10,636 bases of DNA from a virus (Duplodnaviria; Heunggongvirae; Uroviricota; Caudoviricetes), in the IMG/VR virus record IMGVR_UViG_2534682295_000015, positions 1 to 10,636 of that record; one strand, given 5' to 3'. The notes under the pieces were generated by a model. It ran no database searches and was not told the DNA's origin. It saw only the letters and a list, made by a program, of their open reading frames with translations. Of this stretch, positions 1 to 6,583 are shown piece after piece. The first letter of the stretch is position 1. Each line of letters begins with the position of its first letter. A program made the translations under genes and the position numbers.

Positions 1-115
1 AAAGGCAGAGAAAGCAACTAAAGGAAGCTACATCGTAGGGCATACATCTGTTAACCAGCACGGCAATTTAACAGGAGTTTTTGTTTGCCAAAAATGGAAA
101 GGAGAACCCGGTGGC

Positions 116-868
116 GTGATTGCGGAATGTCATGTTAACTGCCTGATTGAATCAGATGATCAGGCTTATGCAAACGCTGAATTCATAGCAGAGGCTAACC
201 CGGCTACCGTGCTGGAACTGCTGGATGAACGGGAAAGAAACCAGCAATACATCAAACGCCGCGACCAGGAGAACGAGGAGATTGCGCTTACGGTTGGGAA
301 GCTGAGAGTTGAGCTGGGAGCAGCAGAGAACAACCTTATTGATAGTGAATGCCATGTTGCTGAACTGGAAGAAGCGCTACGCGATAAGCAGGCGTTACTT
401 GAAGCATCAGAGAAGCGCATAGCAGAACTGGAAGCCGAACTCGTAAGCCAAACTTACAAGTTGCCACACACGCAGTTTGAACAGATTGCTAACCTCTACG
501 AAATGCAATTTGATGACGGTCGCACTTGTGCCTTTCACACTGATGCGCAAAAGGCTGAGCAATGGCTTCAGGCGTGCGACGGAAACAGGGTTCAGGAATA
601 CGTTAAGCTGGAACGGTTGCAGAATGCGCTGTCTGGCAACTCTCCGGTAACTCCGGATGGTTGGATAAGTTGTAGTGAGCGAATGCCGGATACCAAAACA
701 GCCGTTCTTGTTGCCGTGGAGTTTGACAGGAAAGGTGACTGGCGAATGAAGTGGGCGACTTACATCCCGGGGCATCCTGACGCTAATGATGGGTGGATAA
801 TTCCTGGTGCGTCGTGGAAACCGTCACACTGGATGCCGCTACCAGAACCGCCGCAGGAGGTGAACTGA
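116..868 (+). CDS. Ead/Ea22-like prophage protein with C-terminal DUF551-like domain (possibly 5'-truncated by window edge)
   Basis: 250-codon ORF from GTG 116, with AAGGAG-like SD at about 99-104. The same frame is open back to position 2, so the true start may lie upstream of the window. N-terminal part carries the ...AEFIAEANPATVLELLDE... signature plus a coiled-coil-like E/L/A/K-rich stretch, as I recall for Ead/Ea22-like proteins. C-terminal ~70 aa (WISCSERMPDTKTAVLVAVEF...WMPLPEPP) fits the DUF551 pattern. Stop TGA 866-868 overlaps the next ATG. Confidence 0.6.
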   Translation: MIAECHVNCLIESDDQAYANAEFIAEANPATVLELLDERERNQQYIKRRDQENEEIALTVGKLRVELGAAENNLIDSECHVAELEEALRDKQALLEASEKRIAELEAELVSQTYKLPHTQFEQIANLYEMQFDDGRTCAFHTDAQKAEQWLQACDGNRVQEYVKLERLQNALSGNSPVTPDGWISCSERMPDTKTAVLVAVEFDRKGDWRMKWATYIPGHPDANDGWIIPGASWKPSHWMPLPEPPQEVN

Positions 869-1263
869 TGGAAAATGAAGGCGATAATATCATCACACTG
901 GTGCAGCCAAAGCGCGATGAAGAGAAGCTGCTGAACATTACAGTAACTGGCAGAAAAAACTACACACAACAGAGCTGTAAGCATCGGGCCATTGAGGTTC
1001 ATGAACAGGATCACGTTATCCTGTGCTTGCAGTGCGGATGTGTTGTGGACCCTTTTCAGTATGTTCTGCGGTGTGCGAACGATGGTGAGGCTGTGGTGAG
1101 AGAGATTAGACAGCTTCATAACAGACACGATCAGCTCCGAGAATCTGTTGCCAGCCTCGAGCGTGAAGAAAAGAACACCAAAGCACGGTTGCGGGCAGCA
1201 AGAACTGCAATACTGTATGCGGAAAATGACCTTAAAAATATTGAGCAGAAGGTGAATCAATGA
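868..1263 (+). CDS. Hypothetical phage protein, Cys-rich zinc-ribbon-like segment plus C-terminal coiled coil
   Basis: ATG 868 overlaps the upstream stop (ATGA) and is preceded by GGAGG at 856-860; the ORF-track start at 793 lies inside the upstream gene and is rejected. Product MENEGDNIITLVQPK... (131 aa) contains CKH-x14-CLQCGC and a charged helical tail. No family recognised. Confidence 0.55.
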   Translation: MENEGDNIITLVQPKRDEEKLLNITVTGRKNYTQQSCKHRAIEVHEQDHVILCLQCGCVVDPFQYVLRCANDGEAVVREIRQLHNRHDQLRESVASLEREEKNTKARLRAARTAILYAENDLKNIEQKVNQ

Positions 1264-1343
1264 CCTGGCCTGAAGCATTCGCAAATGTAGGAACAGTAAT
1301 GGCGGTGGTGCTGGTTGTGTATTCGATTTGTCGCTGGAGATAA
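1260..1343 (+). CDS. Possible small single-helix membrane peptide (27 aa), translationally coupled
   Basis: ATG 1260 overlaps the upstream TGA (ATGA). Product MTWPEAFANVGTVMAVVLVVYSICRWR has one hydrophobic helix. Very short, so coding status is uncertain. Confidence 0.3.
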   Translation: MTWPEAFANVGTVMAVVLVVYSICRWR

Positions 1344-1396
1344 AAACGGTTTGCGGGAAAAGGAGAGTTAAGTAGAATTGCTGCGGGTGCTTGAGG

Positions 1397-1432
1397 CTAT
1401 CTGCCTTGGGCATGAACACCAAAGGCAGATAG
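1397..1432. repeat. Imperfect inverted repeat (12-13 bp arms, ~10 nt spacer) at the left edge of the low-GC island
   Basis: CTATCTGCCTTGG (1397-1409) ... CCAAAGGCAGATAG (1419-1432) are near-perfect reverse complements (one extra T). No T-run follows on either strand, so it is not a canonical intrinsic terminator. Confidence 0.5.
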
Positions 1433-1633
1433 AGAAAAACCCACCCGACTATAAATCAAAGTGTATTACCCCCATTTGTTGGACGATGAAATGGGTTTAG
1501 TTAACTATGTCGGTATCGACATGACTAAAACAACCTTAAATTGCTCGATTAATAGACAAGTAGTTTTGAAAGATTAAATTTATGCGATCCGGTATTTTCA
1601 AGGGATAGCCTTTATGAGGTTATCTTATGGGGT

Positions 1634-1662
1634 TAAAACATCAAGAACAGTTGTGTTATAAT
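1634..1662 (+). promoter_or_regulatory. Candidate sigma70 promoter with extended -10 (TGTTATAAT) upstream of the C5-methyltransferase gene
   Basis: TGnTATAAT at 1654-1662, about 33 nt upstream of ATG 1695, with a weak -35-like TTAAAA around 1633-1638. Weak SD-like AAGAGA at 1676-1681. Sequence-based prediction only. Confidence 0.3.
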
Positions 1663-1694
1663 ACATAGAAACTAATAAGAGACGTTGCAACTAT

Positions 1695-2846
1695 ATGAAT
1701 GTAATAGATTTGTTTTCTGGCGTTGGAGGTCTAAGTCTTGGTGCTGCACGTGCTGGATTTGATGTTAAAATGGCAGTTGAAATTGATCAACATGCTATTA
1801 ATACTCACGCAATTAATTTTCCAAGAAGTTTGCACGTCCAAGAAGATGTTTCTTTACTAAATGCAGAAATAATTAAGGGTTTTTTTAAAAACGATATGCC
1901 CATAGATGGTATTATTGGCGGTCCTCCGTGCCAAGGATTTAGTTCAATAGGCAAGGGGAATCCTGATGATAGCAGGAATCAGCTTTACATGCATTTCTAC
2001 CGTTTAGTATCAGAATTACAGCCATTATTCTTTTTGGCAGAAAATGTTCCAGGTATTATGCAAGAGAAATATTCTGGCATTAGAAATAAAGCATTTAATT
2101 TGGTTAGCGGTGATTATGATATTCTTGATCCCATCAAGGTAAAAGCATCTGATTATGGTGCTCCAACTATTCGAACTAGATATTTTTTTATCGGTGTAAA
2201 AAAATCATTGAAGCTTGATATTTCAGATGAAGTATTTATGCCTAAAATGATTGATCCGGTTACTGTAAAAGATGCTTTGTATGGATTACCAGATATTATC
2301 GATGCCAATTGGCAATCAGACTCTGAGAGTTGGCGAACAATTAAAAAAGATCGAAAAGGGGGATTTTATGAAAAATTATGGGGGCAGATCCCTCGGAATG
2401 TTGGTGATACAGAATCGATCGCTAAGTTAAAAAATAATATCATATCTGGATGTACCGGAACATTACATAGCAAAATCGTCCAAGAGCGTTATGCTTCCTT
2501 ATCTTTTGGGGAAACTGATAAAATTTCAAGATCTACAAGATTAGATCCAAATGGTTTTTGCCCGACTTTAAGGGCGGGAACCGCTAGAGATAAAGGAAGC
2601 TTTCAAGCCGTCAGGCCGATCCACCCTTATCATCCAAGAGTGATTACACCAAGAGAAGCTGCTAGATTACAAGGCTTCCCTGATTGGTTTCGCTTTCATG
2701 TAACTAAATGGCATAGTTTCAGACAAATAGGAAATAGCGTGTCACCAATAGTTGCTGAATATATATTAAAGGGGCTGTACAATTTATTAAATAAAAGAGT
2801 ACAGCCCGAATATTTAAACCATAATTCTTTGGAAGTTAGGGTATAA
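1695..2846 (+). CDS. DNA (cytosine-5)-methyltransferase, Dcm-like
   Basis: 383-aa ORF with canonical C5-MTase motifs in canonical order: motif I DLFSGVGG (1707-1730), motif IV catalytic GGPPCQGFS (PCQ at 1926-1934), motif VI ENV (2040-2048), motif X-like RQIGNSVSP near the C-terminus. AT-rich codon usage matches the island. Confidence 0.9.
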   Translation: MNVIDLFSGVGGLSLGAARAGFDVKMAVEIDQHAINTHAINFPRSLHVQEDVSLLNAEIIKGFFKNDMPIDGIIGGPPCQGFSSIGKGNPDDSRNQLYMHFYRLVSELQPLFFLAENVPGIMQEKYSGIRNKAFNLVSGDYDILDPIKVKASDYGAPTIRTRYFFIGVKKSLKLDISDEVFMPKMIDPVTVKDALYGLPDIIDANWQSDSESWRTIKKDRKGGFYEKLWGQIPRNVGDTESIAKLKNNIISGCTGTLHSKIVQERYASLSFGETDKISRSTRLDPNGFCPTLRAGTARDKGSFQAVRPIHPYHPRVITPREAARLQGFPDWFRFHVTKWHSFRQIGNSVSPIVAEYILKGLYNLLNKRVQPEYLNHNSLEVRV

Positions 2847-3803
2847 CCTATAGTATTTATAATAGTTATCCCGTTCATTTTCGTTTAAAGAGAACTCTTC
2901 AGCGGCTGCCTGATATGCTTCTTTATCAGGCAGTTTACTATCTAAATTTATCTTTTCTTTAATTGTTAGTGTTGGTATTGCTATTTCTTGCACGTCTTCC
3001 CAATTTGTTGAATAAAATTGCCAGTTAGAAAGGTCGCATGCCTTAGATAACTCTATATATTCTTGTTCTGAGGAGAAAAAACCTGATATTGTCAACATGG
3101 TATGACTGCCATCATTATATTGATTTAAGGATAATGGGTAATACTGAATCTTATCCTTACGTCCTGAAAGACCACGTTCTATTGCTGATCTAAAAGCGTT
3201 TGTAATAATTCGTATTAAAAGAGCTTTAATCTTACGATCTGAAAGATCTGCATTTGATATCTGAAGATTAAAATCAAGATACTTTTTCCCAAGCAATGAT
3301 TTTAATGAATTAATAAAAGCTTCTTTAAAAATATCTAAACTTTCTCCAACTCTACGTTGGTAATAAGAACTAGGATTTATGGGGAAGGTGACCTTCAAAA
3401 TATCAAAAGAGCTTACTTTAGTACTTAGTAAGTGTATATCATCTAGATCCGTTTGTATTTTTTTCGGGGAGGCATAGTCTAACCATGTTATTGATGGTTT
3501 AGAAAAACTATAATCAAGAATAAAGTCATGAGCTGATATTAGCTTACAATCAATACAATTATAAGGCAAATTATATTTTTGTCTGATGTGAGTAGACTCT
3601 TGTTCTTCGAGAGAAATCATATCAGAAAGAGCGATACGATTATGCATGATTCTAAAATCTTCAAGCATCGGACCACCAAAACCTATATATGTATATTCTT
3701 GAATATTTAGTCTTTTGCTTAAGAGGTTTAGGCTTTCGAGAAAAATCTCTCTATCAATAGACTTATTATGCCTTAAGTGATAGGGAATGTATTGTCCAGA
3801 CAT
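2814..3803 (-). CDS. Hypothetical protein (~329 aa), downstream partner of the GHKL ATPase; function unknown
   Basis: Minus-strand ORF; ATG at 3803-3801 overlaps the upstream TGA (TGATG), with an in-frame GTG one codon further upstream (3806). GAGGTG SD-like sequence about 7 nt upstream. Product MSGQYIPYHLRHNKSIDREIFLESL...EYTYIGFGGPMLEDF... has no catalytic motif I can assign. Its 3' end overlaps the convergent MTase 3' end by 33 bp (2814-2846). Confidence 0.7.
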   Translation of the reverse strand: MSGQYIPYHLRHNKSIDREIFLESLNLLSKRLNIQEYTYIGFGGPMLEDFRIMHNRIALSDMISLEEQESTHIRQKYNLPYNCIDCKLISAHDFILDYSFSKPSITWLDYASPKKIQTDLDDIHLLSTKVSSFDILKVTFPINPSSYYQRRVGESLDIFKEAFINSLKSLLGKKYLDFNLQISNADLSDRKIKALLIRIITNAFRSAIERGLSGRKDKIQYYPLSLNQYNDGSHTMLTISGFFSSEQEYIELSKACDLSNWQFYSTNWEDVQEIAIPTLTIKEKINLDSKLPDKEAYQAAAEEFSLNENERDNYYKYYRLYPNFQRIMV

Positions 3804-5194
3804 CACTTCACCTCTTCAATCACCGTATCAAAGCATTGCATCCCCACATCAGAAGCGCTAGCATCTTCATGTCCAAAGAAATATTTAGATAAAATTTTAA
3901 CATCTTCTTTCTCTCTGGTGAAGATTATTCGTACAGTAGAGCTTTTTTTTACTGGGGTAGGCAGCTTAGGTGTATATCGCCACTCATTTTTGTTTCTATT
4001 AGGGTTGGACCAGTTATTTTTTTTATCTTCTGGAGTTGATTGTGGGGTAATTTCAAATAAAGATTGAGCTTCATGTGACTGAGCTGACTTAAGTAATTTT
4101 TTCCCTTCTTCAAGATGCTCACCTTTCCACTGATTGGTGAATCGAATAAAATGCATCATCCCTTCAATCATTTTATTTCGTACATCATTGTACAATGTAG
4201 AACTAAGATCGACACCTCGTTTCGTTGTTGTTATTGGTAATTTTTCTGGGTTTTTACTGGTAAAGCGAACAACCCCAGAAATTGCTATAAATTGGGTATG
4301 AAACCTTGGTACATTAGCAAAGCCCCAACCTGTGAGATGTGTCTTATCACAATATAGAACAACGCGGTCATTGCAAATGACAGTCCATCCAGCATCATCA
4401 GAACTCCTTTTTTCTAAAACATCATCATTGTCATCTTCTAAATTTTTATAGAAGCCAACAACTAAATCGATATCAACATCGTCTATTTTAGCTTTATATA
4501 TGTATGGTTCTATTTTAGAATGATCAGTTATGATGTTAATCGGATTATGTTCAACAACAACTCCATTTAATTCTATTTTAAATCCTTTTTGAATAATAAA
4601 TGACAATGAGTGTTTTATCTGTAAAAAGAGATCAGTAAGATATGTGCTCTCATTAAATTTTTGTGCCACATTAGAATGGAGTTTTTTTATCTCTATAGTT
4701 GTGCCTGTTGGATTTTTGTTATCATAGTCACTCTCGTGCATCGGTATTTTCCAACCATCACCATCGATCCAATCAGGTGTTATATCTACAGTGAATGCGC
4801 CATCGGGATTATTCGATTGTATTGAGCAATCTCTACCCATTTTAAAAATGGCTCTTTTCATACCAATACCATAGACGCCAACGGTGCCTTCATTTTCTTC
4901 TTCTTTTTGATGGGGTCGTCCCATTTTAAAAGCATATTCTCGGAAGCTTTTAGGGATACCTCCGCAATTGTCTTCTATAATAAAGACATCTTTATTAATC
5001 GTAAGTTTCGCATAAAATCCTTCATATGGTTTTGAAGTTTTTTTTGTGTCTTTTATTGTACGTAAAGCCCCATCGACGCAGTTATCAAGCAGATCAAGTA
5101 TGGCATCGTTTAAGTCGATATCTCGAGTTAGCATACTTACAAAAAATCTTTTACTAGGACTAAAGTCTGCTGTTGGAGTCGTGTTCTCAGTCAT
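3803..5194 (-). CDS. GHKL-superfamily (Bergerat-fold, MutL/MORC/Hsp90-like) ATPase, 463 aa
   Basis: N-terminal region carries the three ATP-binding motifs in canonical order: N-box-like DLLDNCVDGA (aa 34-43, nt 5066-5095), G1 box EDNCGGI (aa 74-80, nt 4955-4975), G2 box GVYGIGMK (aa 106-113, nt 4856-4879). The C-terminal ~300 aa are unassigned. ATG at 5194-5192. Confidence 0.8.
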   Translation of the reverse strand: MTENTTPTADFSPSKRFFVSMLTRDIDLNDAILDLLDNCVDGALRTIKDTKKTSKPYEGFYAKLTINKDVFIIEDNCGGIPKSFREYAFKMGRPHQKEEENEGTVGVYGIGMKRAIFKMGRDCSIQSNNPDGAFTVDITPDWIDGDGWKIPMHESDYDNKNPTGTTIEIKKLHSNVAQKFNESTYLTDLFLQIKHSLSFIIQKGFKIELNGVVVEHNPINIITDHSKIEPYIYKAKIDDVDIDLVVGFYKNLEDDNDDVLEKRSSDDAGWTVICNDRVVLYCDKTHLTGWGFANVPRFHTQFIAISGVVRFTSKNPEKLPITTTKRGVDLSSTLYNDVRNKMIEGMMHFIRFTNQWKGEHLEEGKKLLKSAQSHEAQSLFEITPQSTPEDKKNNWSNPNRNKNEWRYTPKLPTPVKKSSTVRIIFTREKEDVKILSKYFFGHEDASASDVGMQCFDTVIEEVK

Positions 5195-5246
5195 AATTTA
5201 CTCTCTATGTGTTTGGGAAAATAAATACCTTAAGTGCAAATTGTTG

Positions 5247-5274
5247 ATTTTAAACGCTTCGCATGCGAAGTCAA
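5247..5274 (-). promoter_or_regulatory. Candidate sigma70 promoter of the GHKL operon (TTGACT - 16 nt - TAAAAT on minus strand) with an embedded 14-bp palindrome
   Basis: Reverse complement of 5240-5280 reads ...cgTTGACTtcgcatgcgaagcgttTAAAATcaacaa... : -35 TTGACT (plus 5269-5274), 16-nt spacer, -10 TAAAAT (plus 5247-5252), about 50 nt upstream of ATG 5194. The perfect palindrome CTTCGCATGCGAAG (5257-5270) fills the spacer and overlaps the -35. Confidence 0.35.
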
Positions 5275-5368
5275 CGATGTTAAGAAAGAAAGTGCATGTG
5301 ATCTAACAGTATGTTTTTAAAAAAAGATTAGCTTTATGAGAATTCAGGACTGAATCCCGTGAGAGGAA

Positions 5369-5384
5369 AATAACATATGTTATT
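5369..5384. repeat. Perfect 16-bp palindrome AATAACATATGTTATT in the island's regulatory region
   Basis: Read directly: the sequence equals its own reverse complement. Followed by two TTGTTGCA direct repeats at 5383-5390 and 5410-5417. Confidence 0.6.
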
Positions 5385-5693
5385 GTTGCATTGCTGTGTT
5401 GTTTGGGATTTGTTGCACCATTCTGGCGTTGGTATATCTAGTTCGTTGTTCATTTTGTTAATTGTACAACAGGCAGACAACAGAGAGCTTTTAGCCTAGT
5501 TAGCTTACGAAATTAAACAACTAAGATTATCGGCGGGGAGTGGTCACCGCTACTCTTTGGCTAGGAGACTTCAACGCAACCGCACACAACCAGCTTCGGC
5601 GGGTTTTGTTTTTTCCTGGCATTCTGGTTTACAATTTGCGTGCTAGCTTGAACAACTGGCATCTGCTGCACTGCGCCATCGAGAGATTGAGAA

Positions 5694-6293
5694 ATGGCGC
5701 ATATACAACTGGTCAAACAAACTTCTTCTGGTTTACTTCTCCCGGCGACGCCGGAGAGTTGCGATTTTCTGCATCAAATCAAAATAGGTGAGTGGATACA
5801 CGCAGATTTTAAGCGTGTGCGTAACTACGCATTCCACAAGCGTTTTTTCAAACTCCTGCAACTGGGATTCGATTACTGGACTCCGGTCGGTGGGGCGATC
5901 ACGCCTCGCGAACGAGAACTGCTGTCTGGTTTCGTTGATTACCTGTGCGAATCAGTTGGTCGGGAACACACGCCAGCCCTGAGTGATGCCGCAGAGCAAT
6001 ACCTTAACACCGTTGCGACTCGTAGAACCCGGGATACGGCGTTGCTAAAGTCGTTTGAGGCTTTCCGCGAGTGGGTAACCATTCAGGCCGGATTTTACAC
6101 CGAGCATATTTATCCGGACGGTAGCCGTGGGCGTCGGGCAAAATCCATCGCTTTTGCGAATATGGACGAAGTCGAGTTTCAGCAGGTTTATAAATCTGTA
6201 CTGAATGTGCTGTGGAACTGGATTCTGTTCCGTAAATTCTCCTCTCAGGAGGAAGTTGAAAATGTGGCCGCACAACTACTGGAGTTTGCGTAA
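5694..6293 (+). CDS. Conserved lambdoid nin-region protein (199 aa), function unknown; resembles the DUF1367 family as I recall it
   Basis: ORF with ATG 5694, GC content and codon usage matching the phage backbone. Stop TAA 6291-6293 overlaps the next ATG (TAATG). Family assignment is from memory and unverified. Confidence 0.7.
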   Translation: MAHIQLVKQTSSGLLLPATPESCDFLHQIKIGEWIHADFKRVRNYAFHKRFFKLLQLGFDYWTPVGGAITPRERELLSGFVDYLCESVGREHTPALSDAAEQYLNTVATRRTRDTALLKSFEAFREWVTIQAGFYTEHIYPDGSRGRRAKSIAFANMDEVEFQQVYKSVLNVLWNWILFRKFSSQEEVENVAAQLLEFA

Positions 6294-6583
6294 TGGTGAA
6301 TTTACGTAAAGCGGCTAAAGGCCAGATATGCCAGATCAGAATCCCTGGCTACTGCAATCACAATCCCGAAACCTCTGTGCTGGCGCATTACAGGCTGGCG
6401 GGAACGTGCGGAACAGCGATAAAGCCACACGATATGCAGGCAGCGATTGCCTGTAACTCATGCCACGATTTAATCGACGGGAGAGTAAAAACCAGCGATT
6501 ACACCAAAGAAGAATTGCGCCTGATGCATGCAGAAGGTGTTTTTCGCACACAAGAGATCTGGAGAAAGGACGGTTATTTATGA
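6293..6583 (+). CDS. YbcO-like (DUF1364) putative zinc-binding nuclease of lambdoid phages
   Basis: 96-aa product with CQIRIPGYCNHNPETSVLAH...CNSCHDLIDG (CxxxxxxxC ... CxxCH), which resembles prophage YbcO-type proteins as I recall them. Coupled to both neighbours by overlapping stop/start codons. Confidence 0.6.
   Translation: MVNLRKAAKGQICQIRIPGYCNHNPETSVLAHYRLAGTCGTAIKPHDMQAAIACNSCHDLIDGRVKTSDYTKEELRLMHAEGVFRTQEIWRKDGYL

Follow-up and report, generated by a model that had tools for sequence, protein, structure and literature searches.

A probable sigma-70 promoter of a mobile prophage cassette in Escherichia coli O157, and the most likely incidental palindrome in its spacer

Analysis of a prophage sequence (the window, meaning the whole stretch of 10,636 nucleotides that was analysed, positions 1 to 10,636 of IMG/VR record IMGVR_UViG_2534682295_000015) suggests that a site within it is probably the autonomous sigma-70 promoter of a prophage cassette, and that the palindrome which this site contains is an incidental state of a drifting spacer, most likely without a regulatory role. 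The promoter, at 5247-5274, would drive the gene of a GHKL ATPase and the translationally coupled gene of a PF20553 methyltransferase-fold protein, and the 14-bp palindrome would be no more than what a 16-nt spacer that is free to drift happens to read in the E. coli O157 allele.

The window belongs to a lambdoid prophage, with genes for Ead/Ea22-DUF551 and DUF1367 proteins, a Q-like antiterminator and, downstream of the latter, an N6/N4 methyltransferase. Its low-GC block is an island of three cassette genes (Table 1), a near-identical copy of which is present in 172 complete E. coli genomes, including that of O157:H7 EDL933, in which the island lies in a Rac-like prophage with flanks that differ from those of the window. 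Close relatives of the cassette are found nearly all in the nin regions of lambdoid prophages. Homology to these relatives by blastn reaches 5279, five bases beyond the -35 hexamer of the GHKL promoter on its upstream side, and at the other end stops at 1633-1694, at or just inside the promoter of the cassette's Dcm-type methyltransferase gene; thus, the cassette is bounded by its two promoters. The junction DNA beyond 5279 matches nothing in the relatives, in plasmids or in other E. coli prophages. A 13-nt repeat of the coding sequence of methyltransferase motif I prompted the idea that this DNA is a remnant of another Dcm gene, which was rejected, as tblastn returned noise only. The only match to a known RNA family (Rfam) in the island is a sub-threshold one at its left edge, to the sok antitoxin (1385-1509, plus strand; 50.2 bits against a gathering score of 59; E = 2e-9), which may mark a remnant of a hok/sok-type toxin-antitoxin system.

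Table 1. Coordinates of the cassette features, and 14-mers of relatives read at the alignment position of the palindrome of the window
Feature	Position	Strand	Remarks
Conserved mobile cassette	1633..5279		blastn end points versus relatives
Methyltransferase promoter TTAAAA-18-TATAAT, extended -10 TGTGTTATAAT	1633..1662	+	weak -35; no palindrome
Dcm-type C5-cytosine DNA methyltransferase gene	1695..2846	+	product essentially identical to PDB 3g7u
PF20553 'Methyltransf_35' protein gene	2814..3803	-	329 aa as annotated; class I Rossmann SAM-methyltransferase fold
GHKL ATPase gene, PF13589	3803..5194	-	463 aa; GHKL domain and S5-like transducer fold; first gene of the operon
Shine-Dalgarno-like AGAGAG	5201..5206	-	6 nt before ATG; GAG conserved among variants
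Predicted transcription start	5240..5242	-	inferred from promoter geometry, 5-7 nt downstream of -10
-10 hexamer TAAAAT	5247..5252	-	T1, A2, A5, T6 and the following CA (5246-5245) invariant
Perfect 14-bp palindrome CTTCGCATGCGAAG	5257..5270		private to the E. coli O157 cassette allele
-35 hexamer TTGACT	5269..5274	-	TTGAC invariant in nine variants
Junction DNA	5280-5570		private to the island; other lambdoid prophages match again only from about 5571
L166 14-mer CTTCGCATAAGAAG			5/7 dyad pairs; closest relative, GHKL 88% identical
L104 14-mer CATCCCTATCGAAG			4/7 dyad pairs
L083 14-mer CTTCACATTGCAAG			4/7 dyad pairs
L091 14-mer CTTCATCCTTCAAG			4/7 dyad pairs
L093 14-mer CTTAGCTGGTGAAG			4/7 dyad pairs
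L090 14-mer CAATCAATCAGAAG			2/7 dyad pairs
L085 14-mer CATACTTTTATCAA			1/7 dyad pairs
L086 14-mer CATGTATTTTGCAA			1/7 dyad pairs

The Dcm gene converges on the GHKL operon, its 3' end overlaps that of the PF20553 gene by 33 nt, and the start of the PF20553 gene in turn overlaps the stop codon of the GHKL gene by 1 nt. A structural model of the GHKL protein (pLDDT 82) has Foldseek matches to Hsp90/TRAP1, SMCHD1, Topo IV and MORC2. The methyltransferase aligns over its full length with PDB 3g7u as well as with its relatives, catalytic motif I (FSGVGG) starting at residue 7; only its N-terminal half resembles M.HaeIII or M.HhaI. Since the sequence blocks that flank its variable region are highly conserved among relatives, comparison of these sequences suggests that the methyltransferases of the relatives share one specificity. 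Neither Pfam, NCBIfam nor PADLOC detected a nuclease domain in the cassette, and PADLOC has no model for either protein of the operon. Literature searches with the WP accessions of the cassette proteins, PDB 3g7u and PF20553 returned nothing relevant and no experimental work.

The GHKL family comprises more than 5,400 homologues across many phyla, and the linkage of the three genes is conserved. A Dcm gene is present in 155 of 164 classified loci of the family, with three classified arrangements covering 149: the methyltransferase gene comes first in a single operon (Dcm>GHKL>PF20553) in 65 of the 164, and 74, including the enterobacterial prophage lineage, have the order GHKL>PF20553<Dcm, in which a convergent Dcm gene has its own promoter. 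The locus of Serratia marcescens (L088) carries a second, larger GHKL gene (608 aa) between the PF20553 and methyltransferase genes, as well as a (CACCCA)n tandem repeat of about nine units at approximately 3360-3410, 95-140 nt upstream of the GHKL gene, which could be a phase-variation tract.

On the minus strand, positions 5274-5247 read TTGACT-TCGCATGCGAAGCGTT-TAAAAT, which matches the sigma-70 consensus at 10 of 12 positions with a spacer of 16 nt, inside the 16-18 nt range of such promoters. From the GHKL start (5194) to the next gene, a consensus scan found no other promoter-like site on the minus strand; since that scan reported 19 promoter-like sites in the island where 16.7 would be expected, a match alone proves nothing. 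The footprint was obtained from relatives with GHKL proteins 75-88% identical to that of the window, drawn from assemblies and viral contigs. Alignment and a regular-expression search agree on TTGAC-N17-TAnnATCA as a motif without variation among nine independent variants of the cassette (the window, L166, L090, L082/L104, L083/84, L091/92, L093, L085 and L086). Spacing between the hexamers is constant in all nine and the distance to the ATG is similar, whereas the remaining upstream region averages 59% column identity; in other words, hexamers and spacing are kept while neighbouring bases drift, as is expected of a sigma-70 promoter. Because of this phylogenetic footprint the site is very probably a sigma-70 promoter, and the promoter prediction of an earlier note on this DNA, TTGACT-16-TAAAAT on the minus strand, holds up. 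A distance of 53 nt, within which there is a GAGAG ribosome-binding site, separates the promoter from the GHKL ATG, and the 5' untranslated region predicted from promoter geometry would be about 46-48 nt long. The promoter of the methyltransferase gene likewise has a core, TGn-TAnAAT (TGTGnTAnAAT), that is conserved in most relatives.

Several variants differ around the conserved promoter. In Enterobacter asburiae (L086) the GHKL homologue as annotated (488 aa) begins with an extension of 25 residues at its N-terminus, and the conserved promoter, there TTGACA-16-TATTAT, lies inside that extension (L086 3501-3590); thus, the annotated start is probably mis-called and the true start is probably the downstream ATG. 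Directly downstream of the -10 hexamer, L093 has an inverted repeat (TGGATTATGGATAATCCA, L093 3445-3470), and at the equivalent position L083 and L091 have another (ATTATGAATAA); the window has neither, and these repeats may represent an element of particular lineages at the transcription start.

The palindrome is real: a script and a reading of the letters both confirm what had been noted before, that CTTCGCATGCGAAG is its own reverse complement over 14 bp, and that it lies in the spacer and overlaps the -35 of the minus-strand promoter. It takes up 12 of the 16 bases in the spacer together with the final CT of the -35 hexamer, and such an overlap of spacer and -35 is a classical position for a repressor. 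When the whole 10.6-kb window is shuffled by a Markov model, 52% of the shuffles contain a perfect palindrome of at least 14 bp; for the 499-nt intergenic region the figure is 4%, and among random spacers and flanks around a fixed TTGACT-16-TAAAAT about 0.5% have one that overlaps the promoter. The last figure is a point against the incidental reading. The palindrome is therefore unusual for one given promoter, and not for a feature picked from a reading of the whole window, since 52% of window shuffles hold at least one. Indeed, the window holds three, at 5257-5270, 5369-5384 and 8399-8412. The second of these, which is longer (16 bp, AATAACATATGTTATT), lies in the same intergenic region, within the private DNA of 5280-5570, and the third (14 bp, CCACCAGCTGGTGG) lies inside the N6/N4 DNA methyltransferase gene (7707-8765); these two have no evident role.

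Within E. coli the palindrome is unchanged in ten IMG/VR copies with 100% identical GHKL proteins (L094-L103) and in EDL933 (L001; gene EDL933_RS11260), where it occupies 2157831-2157844 of NZ_CP008957.1 and the predicted transcription start corresponds to about 2157860 of that record. Every one of the 173 E. coli records that span this intergenic region completely shows an identity of at least 99% with the window over it. Because all 173 are so nearly identical, this conservation says nothing either way about the palindrome. Across the nine variants, no part of the promoter is less conserved than the 16-nt spacer, and the palindrome is perfect (seven of seven dyad pairs) only in the E. coli O157 allele, being absent from the eight other promoter variants (Table 1). 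The closest relative, L166, differs from the window by two adjacent base changes in one arm, which are uncompensated; compensatory changes in the dyad were found in none of the relatives' promoters. Overall, 55.6% of cells retain dyad pairing; shuffling of the columns gives 51.5 +/- 4.1%, and 103 of the 500 shuffles reach or exceed the observed value. In the seven relatives other than L166, the longest perfect palindrome that overlaps the promoter measures 2-8 bp. The outer CTT...AAG arms are kept in four closer lineages, and in the right arm the A never varies; shared ancestry explains this equally well. Palindromes as a trait of the wider family were rejected, as 137 distinct regions upstream of the operon have no enrichment of inverted repeats over shuffles: depending on the arrangement class, 0-10% of loci reach p <= 0.05, and by this same permissive test the palindrome of the window itself has p = 0.08.

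These comparisons bear on the proposal that CTTCGCATGCGAAG is an allele-specific operator, occupied by a dimeric DNA-binding protein from outside the cassette, either a transcription factor of the host or the repressor of a prophage, that blocks RNA polymerase at the GHKL promoter of O157. The length and perfection of the 14-bp dyad, its overlap with -35 and spacer, the rarity of that overlap for a given promoter (about 0.5%, as above) and the imperfect dyad (five of seven pairs) that L166 keeps all speak for it, and real operators are often imperfect and can be lineage-specific. Nevertheless, we consider an operator unlikely. The dyad of a repressor operator should be kept or compensated in orthologous promoters, and here it is missing, with no compensatory change, from all eight relatives that keep the promoter, with pairing that equals that of shuffles. 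A cognate regulator nearby or further copies of the site should also be found. The cassette has no regulator gene, as the earlier note had observed; the island holds three genes only, none of which encodes a regulator or helix-turn-helix protein, and five small open reading frames (5334-5480 and 5561-5716 on the minus strand; 5377-5499, 5540-5791 and 5046-5306 on the plus strand) were discarded as hidden regulators for want of a Pfam match at E <= 1. With three or fewer mismatches allowed, the palindrome does not recur in the window or in the 28-kb EDL933 prophage stretch (L001) that contains the island and the immunity region. A half-site regulon was likewise dismissed (three half-sites, within chance, with the full site occurring once), as was an operator in common with the methyltransferase promoter, where the conserved element is the extended -10 and there is no dyad. 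Because the island is found in at least two lambdoid prophage backgrounds with different flanks (those of the window and of EDL933), a specific phage repressor is unlikely to be the partner. Literature searches with the 12-mer and the 14-mer found no bacterial operator, the sole sequence match being that of eukaryotic NRF1. The earlier view of the palindrome as the operator of a dimeric repressor is thus not supported. Regarding the SOS response, 5240-5290 contains no LexA box (CTGT-N8-ACAG); L166 has a LexA-box-like sequence (TACTGTATAAATAAACAGTA, L166 2300-2330) upstream of a dinI gene that adjoins its cassette, about 220 nt from the GHKL -35, which has no counterpart in the window.

Two kinds of regulation known from restriction-modification systems offer partial parallels. 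In C-protein systems (C.PvuII, C.AhdI, C.Esp1396I), type II restriction-modification operons are controlled through C-boxes, which form a tandem pair. The cassette resembles them in being a methyltransferase-linked module with a palindromic element over the -35 of the promoter of its non-methyltransferase genes. Unlike them, it has no C gene and no small helix-turn-helix open reading frame, the GHKL gene following directly after the promoter where a C gene would come first in the operon, and its dyad is single rather than tandem and unconserved among relatives. Methyltransferases of the M.SsoII, M.EcoRII and M.MspI type are m5C enzymes that autoregulate their promoters by means of an N-terminal helix-turn-helix. 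Here too an m5C methyltransferase is linked to divergent or convergent partner genes and there is a palindrome in a promoter, but the cassette enzyme lacks an N-terminal extension, with motif I beginning at residue 7 as noted above, and its own promoter has no palindrome.

Another possibility is an epigenetic switch, in which the palindrome would hold the site recognised by the Dcm-type methyltransferase of the cassette itself (e.g. GCATGC or a longer sequence), and C5-methylation of spacer and -35 region would tune the GHKL promoter and tie expression of the effector to the state of methylation. This is attractive inasmuch as an m5C methyltransferase is paired with the operon in the cassette, the palindrome is GC-rich in AT-rich DNA and offers symmetric C-bearing sites, and modules resembling restriction-modification systems need modification to be expressed ahead of the effector. 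At the CfrBI promoter, methylation state is coupled to effector expression. We judge such a switch to be very unlikely, however: no C-containing palindrome is common to the relatives' promoters despite the suggested shared specificity of their methyltransferases, and PDB 3g7u, which matches the enzyme in sequence, gives no target site. In addition, the methyltransferase gene is the first of the same operon in 65 of the 164 classified loci, and so in those loci the problem of timing is solved without a switch. Taking the regulatory alternatives in their lineage-specific form, two substitutions in the O157 lineage may have completed a dyad that is the target either of the Dcm-type methyltransferase or of a dimeric regulator from host or prophage, making the GHKL promoter sensitive to methylation or to a repressor. 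We hold this to be decidedly improbable; if it were true, the effector pair formed by the GHKL and methyltransferase-fold proteins would be delayed or silenced until the genome has been modified.

A structural role for the palindrome, as a hairpin, cruciform or terminator that for example stops read-through of phage transcription on the plus strand, is almost certainly not the explanation. Although a stem of 5-6 bp with a 4-nt loop can form, the fold, as RNA or single-stranded DNA, is weak and no better than that of shuffles (-6.1 and -7.1 kcal/mol, with z-scores of 0.17 and -0.9), no U-run follows it on either strand, and a terminator scan does not list the site; on these grounds a terminator or RNA hairpin was rejected. 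The palindrome is also not conserved among relatives, and it lies upstream of the predicted minus-strand start, so that the operon's own mRNA would not contain it.

The reading that we prefer, an autonomous promoter with an incidental palindrome, would have the GHKL promoter active and unregulated at the level of an operator, with ordered expression arising from the architecture of the cassette instead. The Dcm gene would be transcribed from its own extended -10 promoter in the direction of early-right phage transcription, and the GHKL operon would be opposed to it. In all prophage copies, the O/P and Q genes do share the orientation of the Dcm gene, and the GHKL operon faces the other way. 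Owing to this orientation, read-through upon induction should raise expression of the methyltransferase and interfere with transcription of the GHKL operon by collision. A comparison can be made with the autonomous sigma-70 promoters that 'moron' or defence cassettes carry in lambdoid nin regions: here too a self-contained insert of low GC content brings promoters of its own into the interval from the replication genes to the Q antiterminator, the -35 and -10 hexamers are near consensus (10/12), and expression presumably takes place from the repressed prophage. The present case differs in that the operon is antisense to early phage transcription, and converges on and overlaps the gene of its partner methyltransferase.

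The paraMORC concept (Iyer, Abhiman and Aravind 2008, PMC2292703) concerns MORC-type GHKL ATPases whose genes are associated with those of restriction-modification systems. The PF13589 match and the fold matches place the cassette close to this concept: a GHKL ATPase with an S5-like domain is tightly linked to a cytosine DNA methyltransferase, sporadically across phyla and on mobile elements. Unlike paraMORC systems with an associated nuclease or SF2 helicase, the cassette has neither in recognisable form, and its third gene encodes a protein with a Rossmann SAM-methyltransferase fold (PF20553). The cassette looks like an uncharacterised methyltransferase-linked defence or epigenetic module.

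For practical purposes, the promoter is supported comparatively and can be used in the design of constructs, and annotation of the palindrome as an operator is not warranted. The spacers that occur naturally in L166 (TCGCATAAGAAGCGCT) and L082 (TCCCTATCGAAGCGCT) provide a concrete control with both hexamers intact and the dyad disrupted. The palindromic promoter as originally described matters little; the more interesting object is the cassette, a compact and widely distributed module carried by O157 prophages, with two candidate promoters and no recognisable nuclease.
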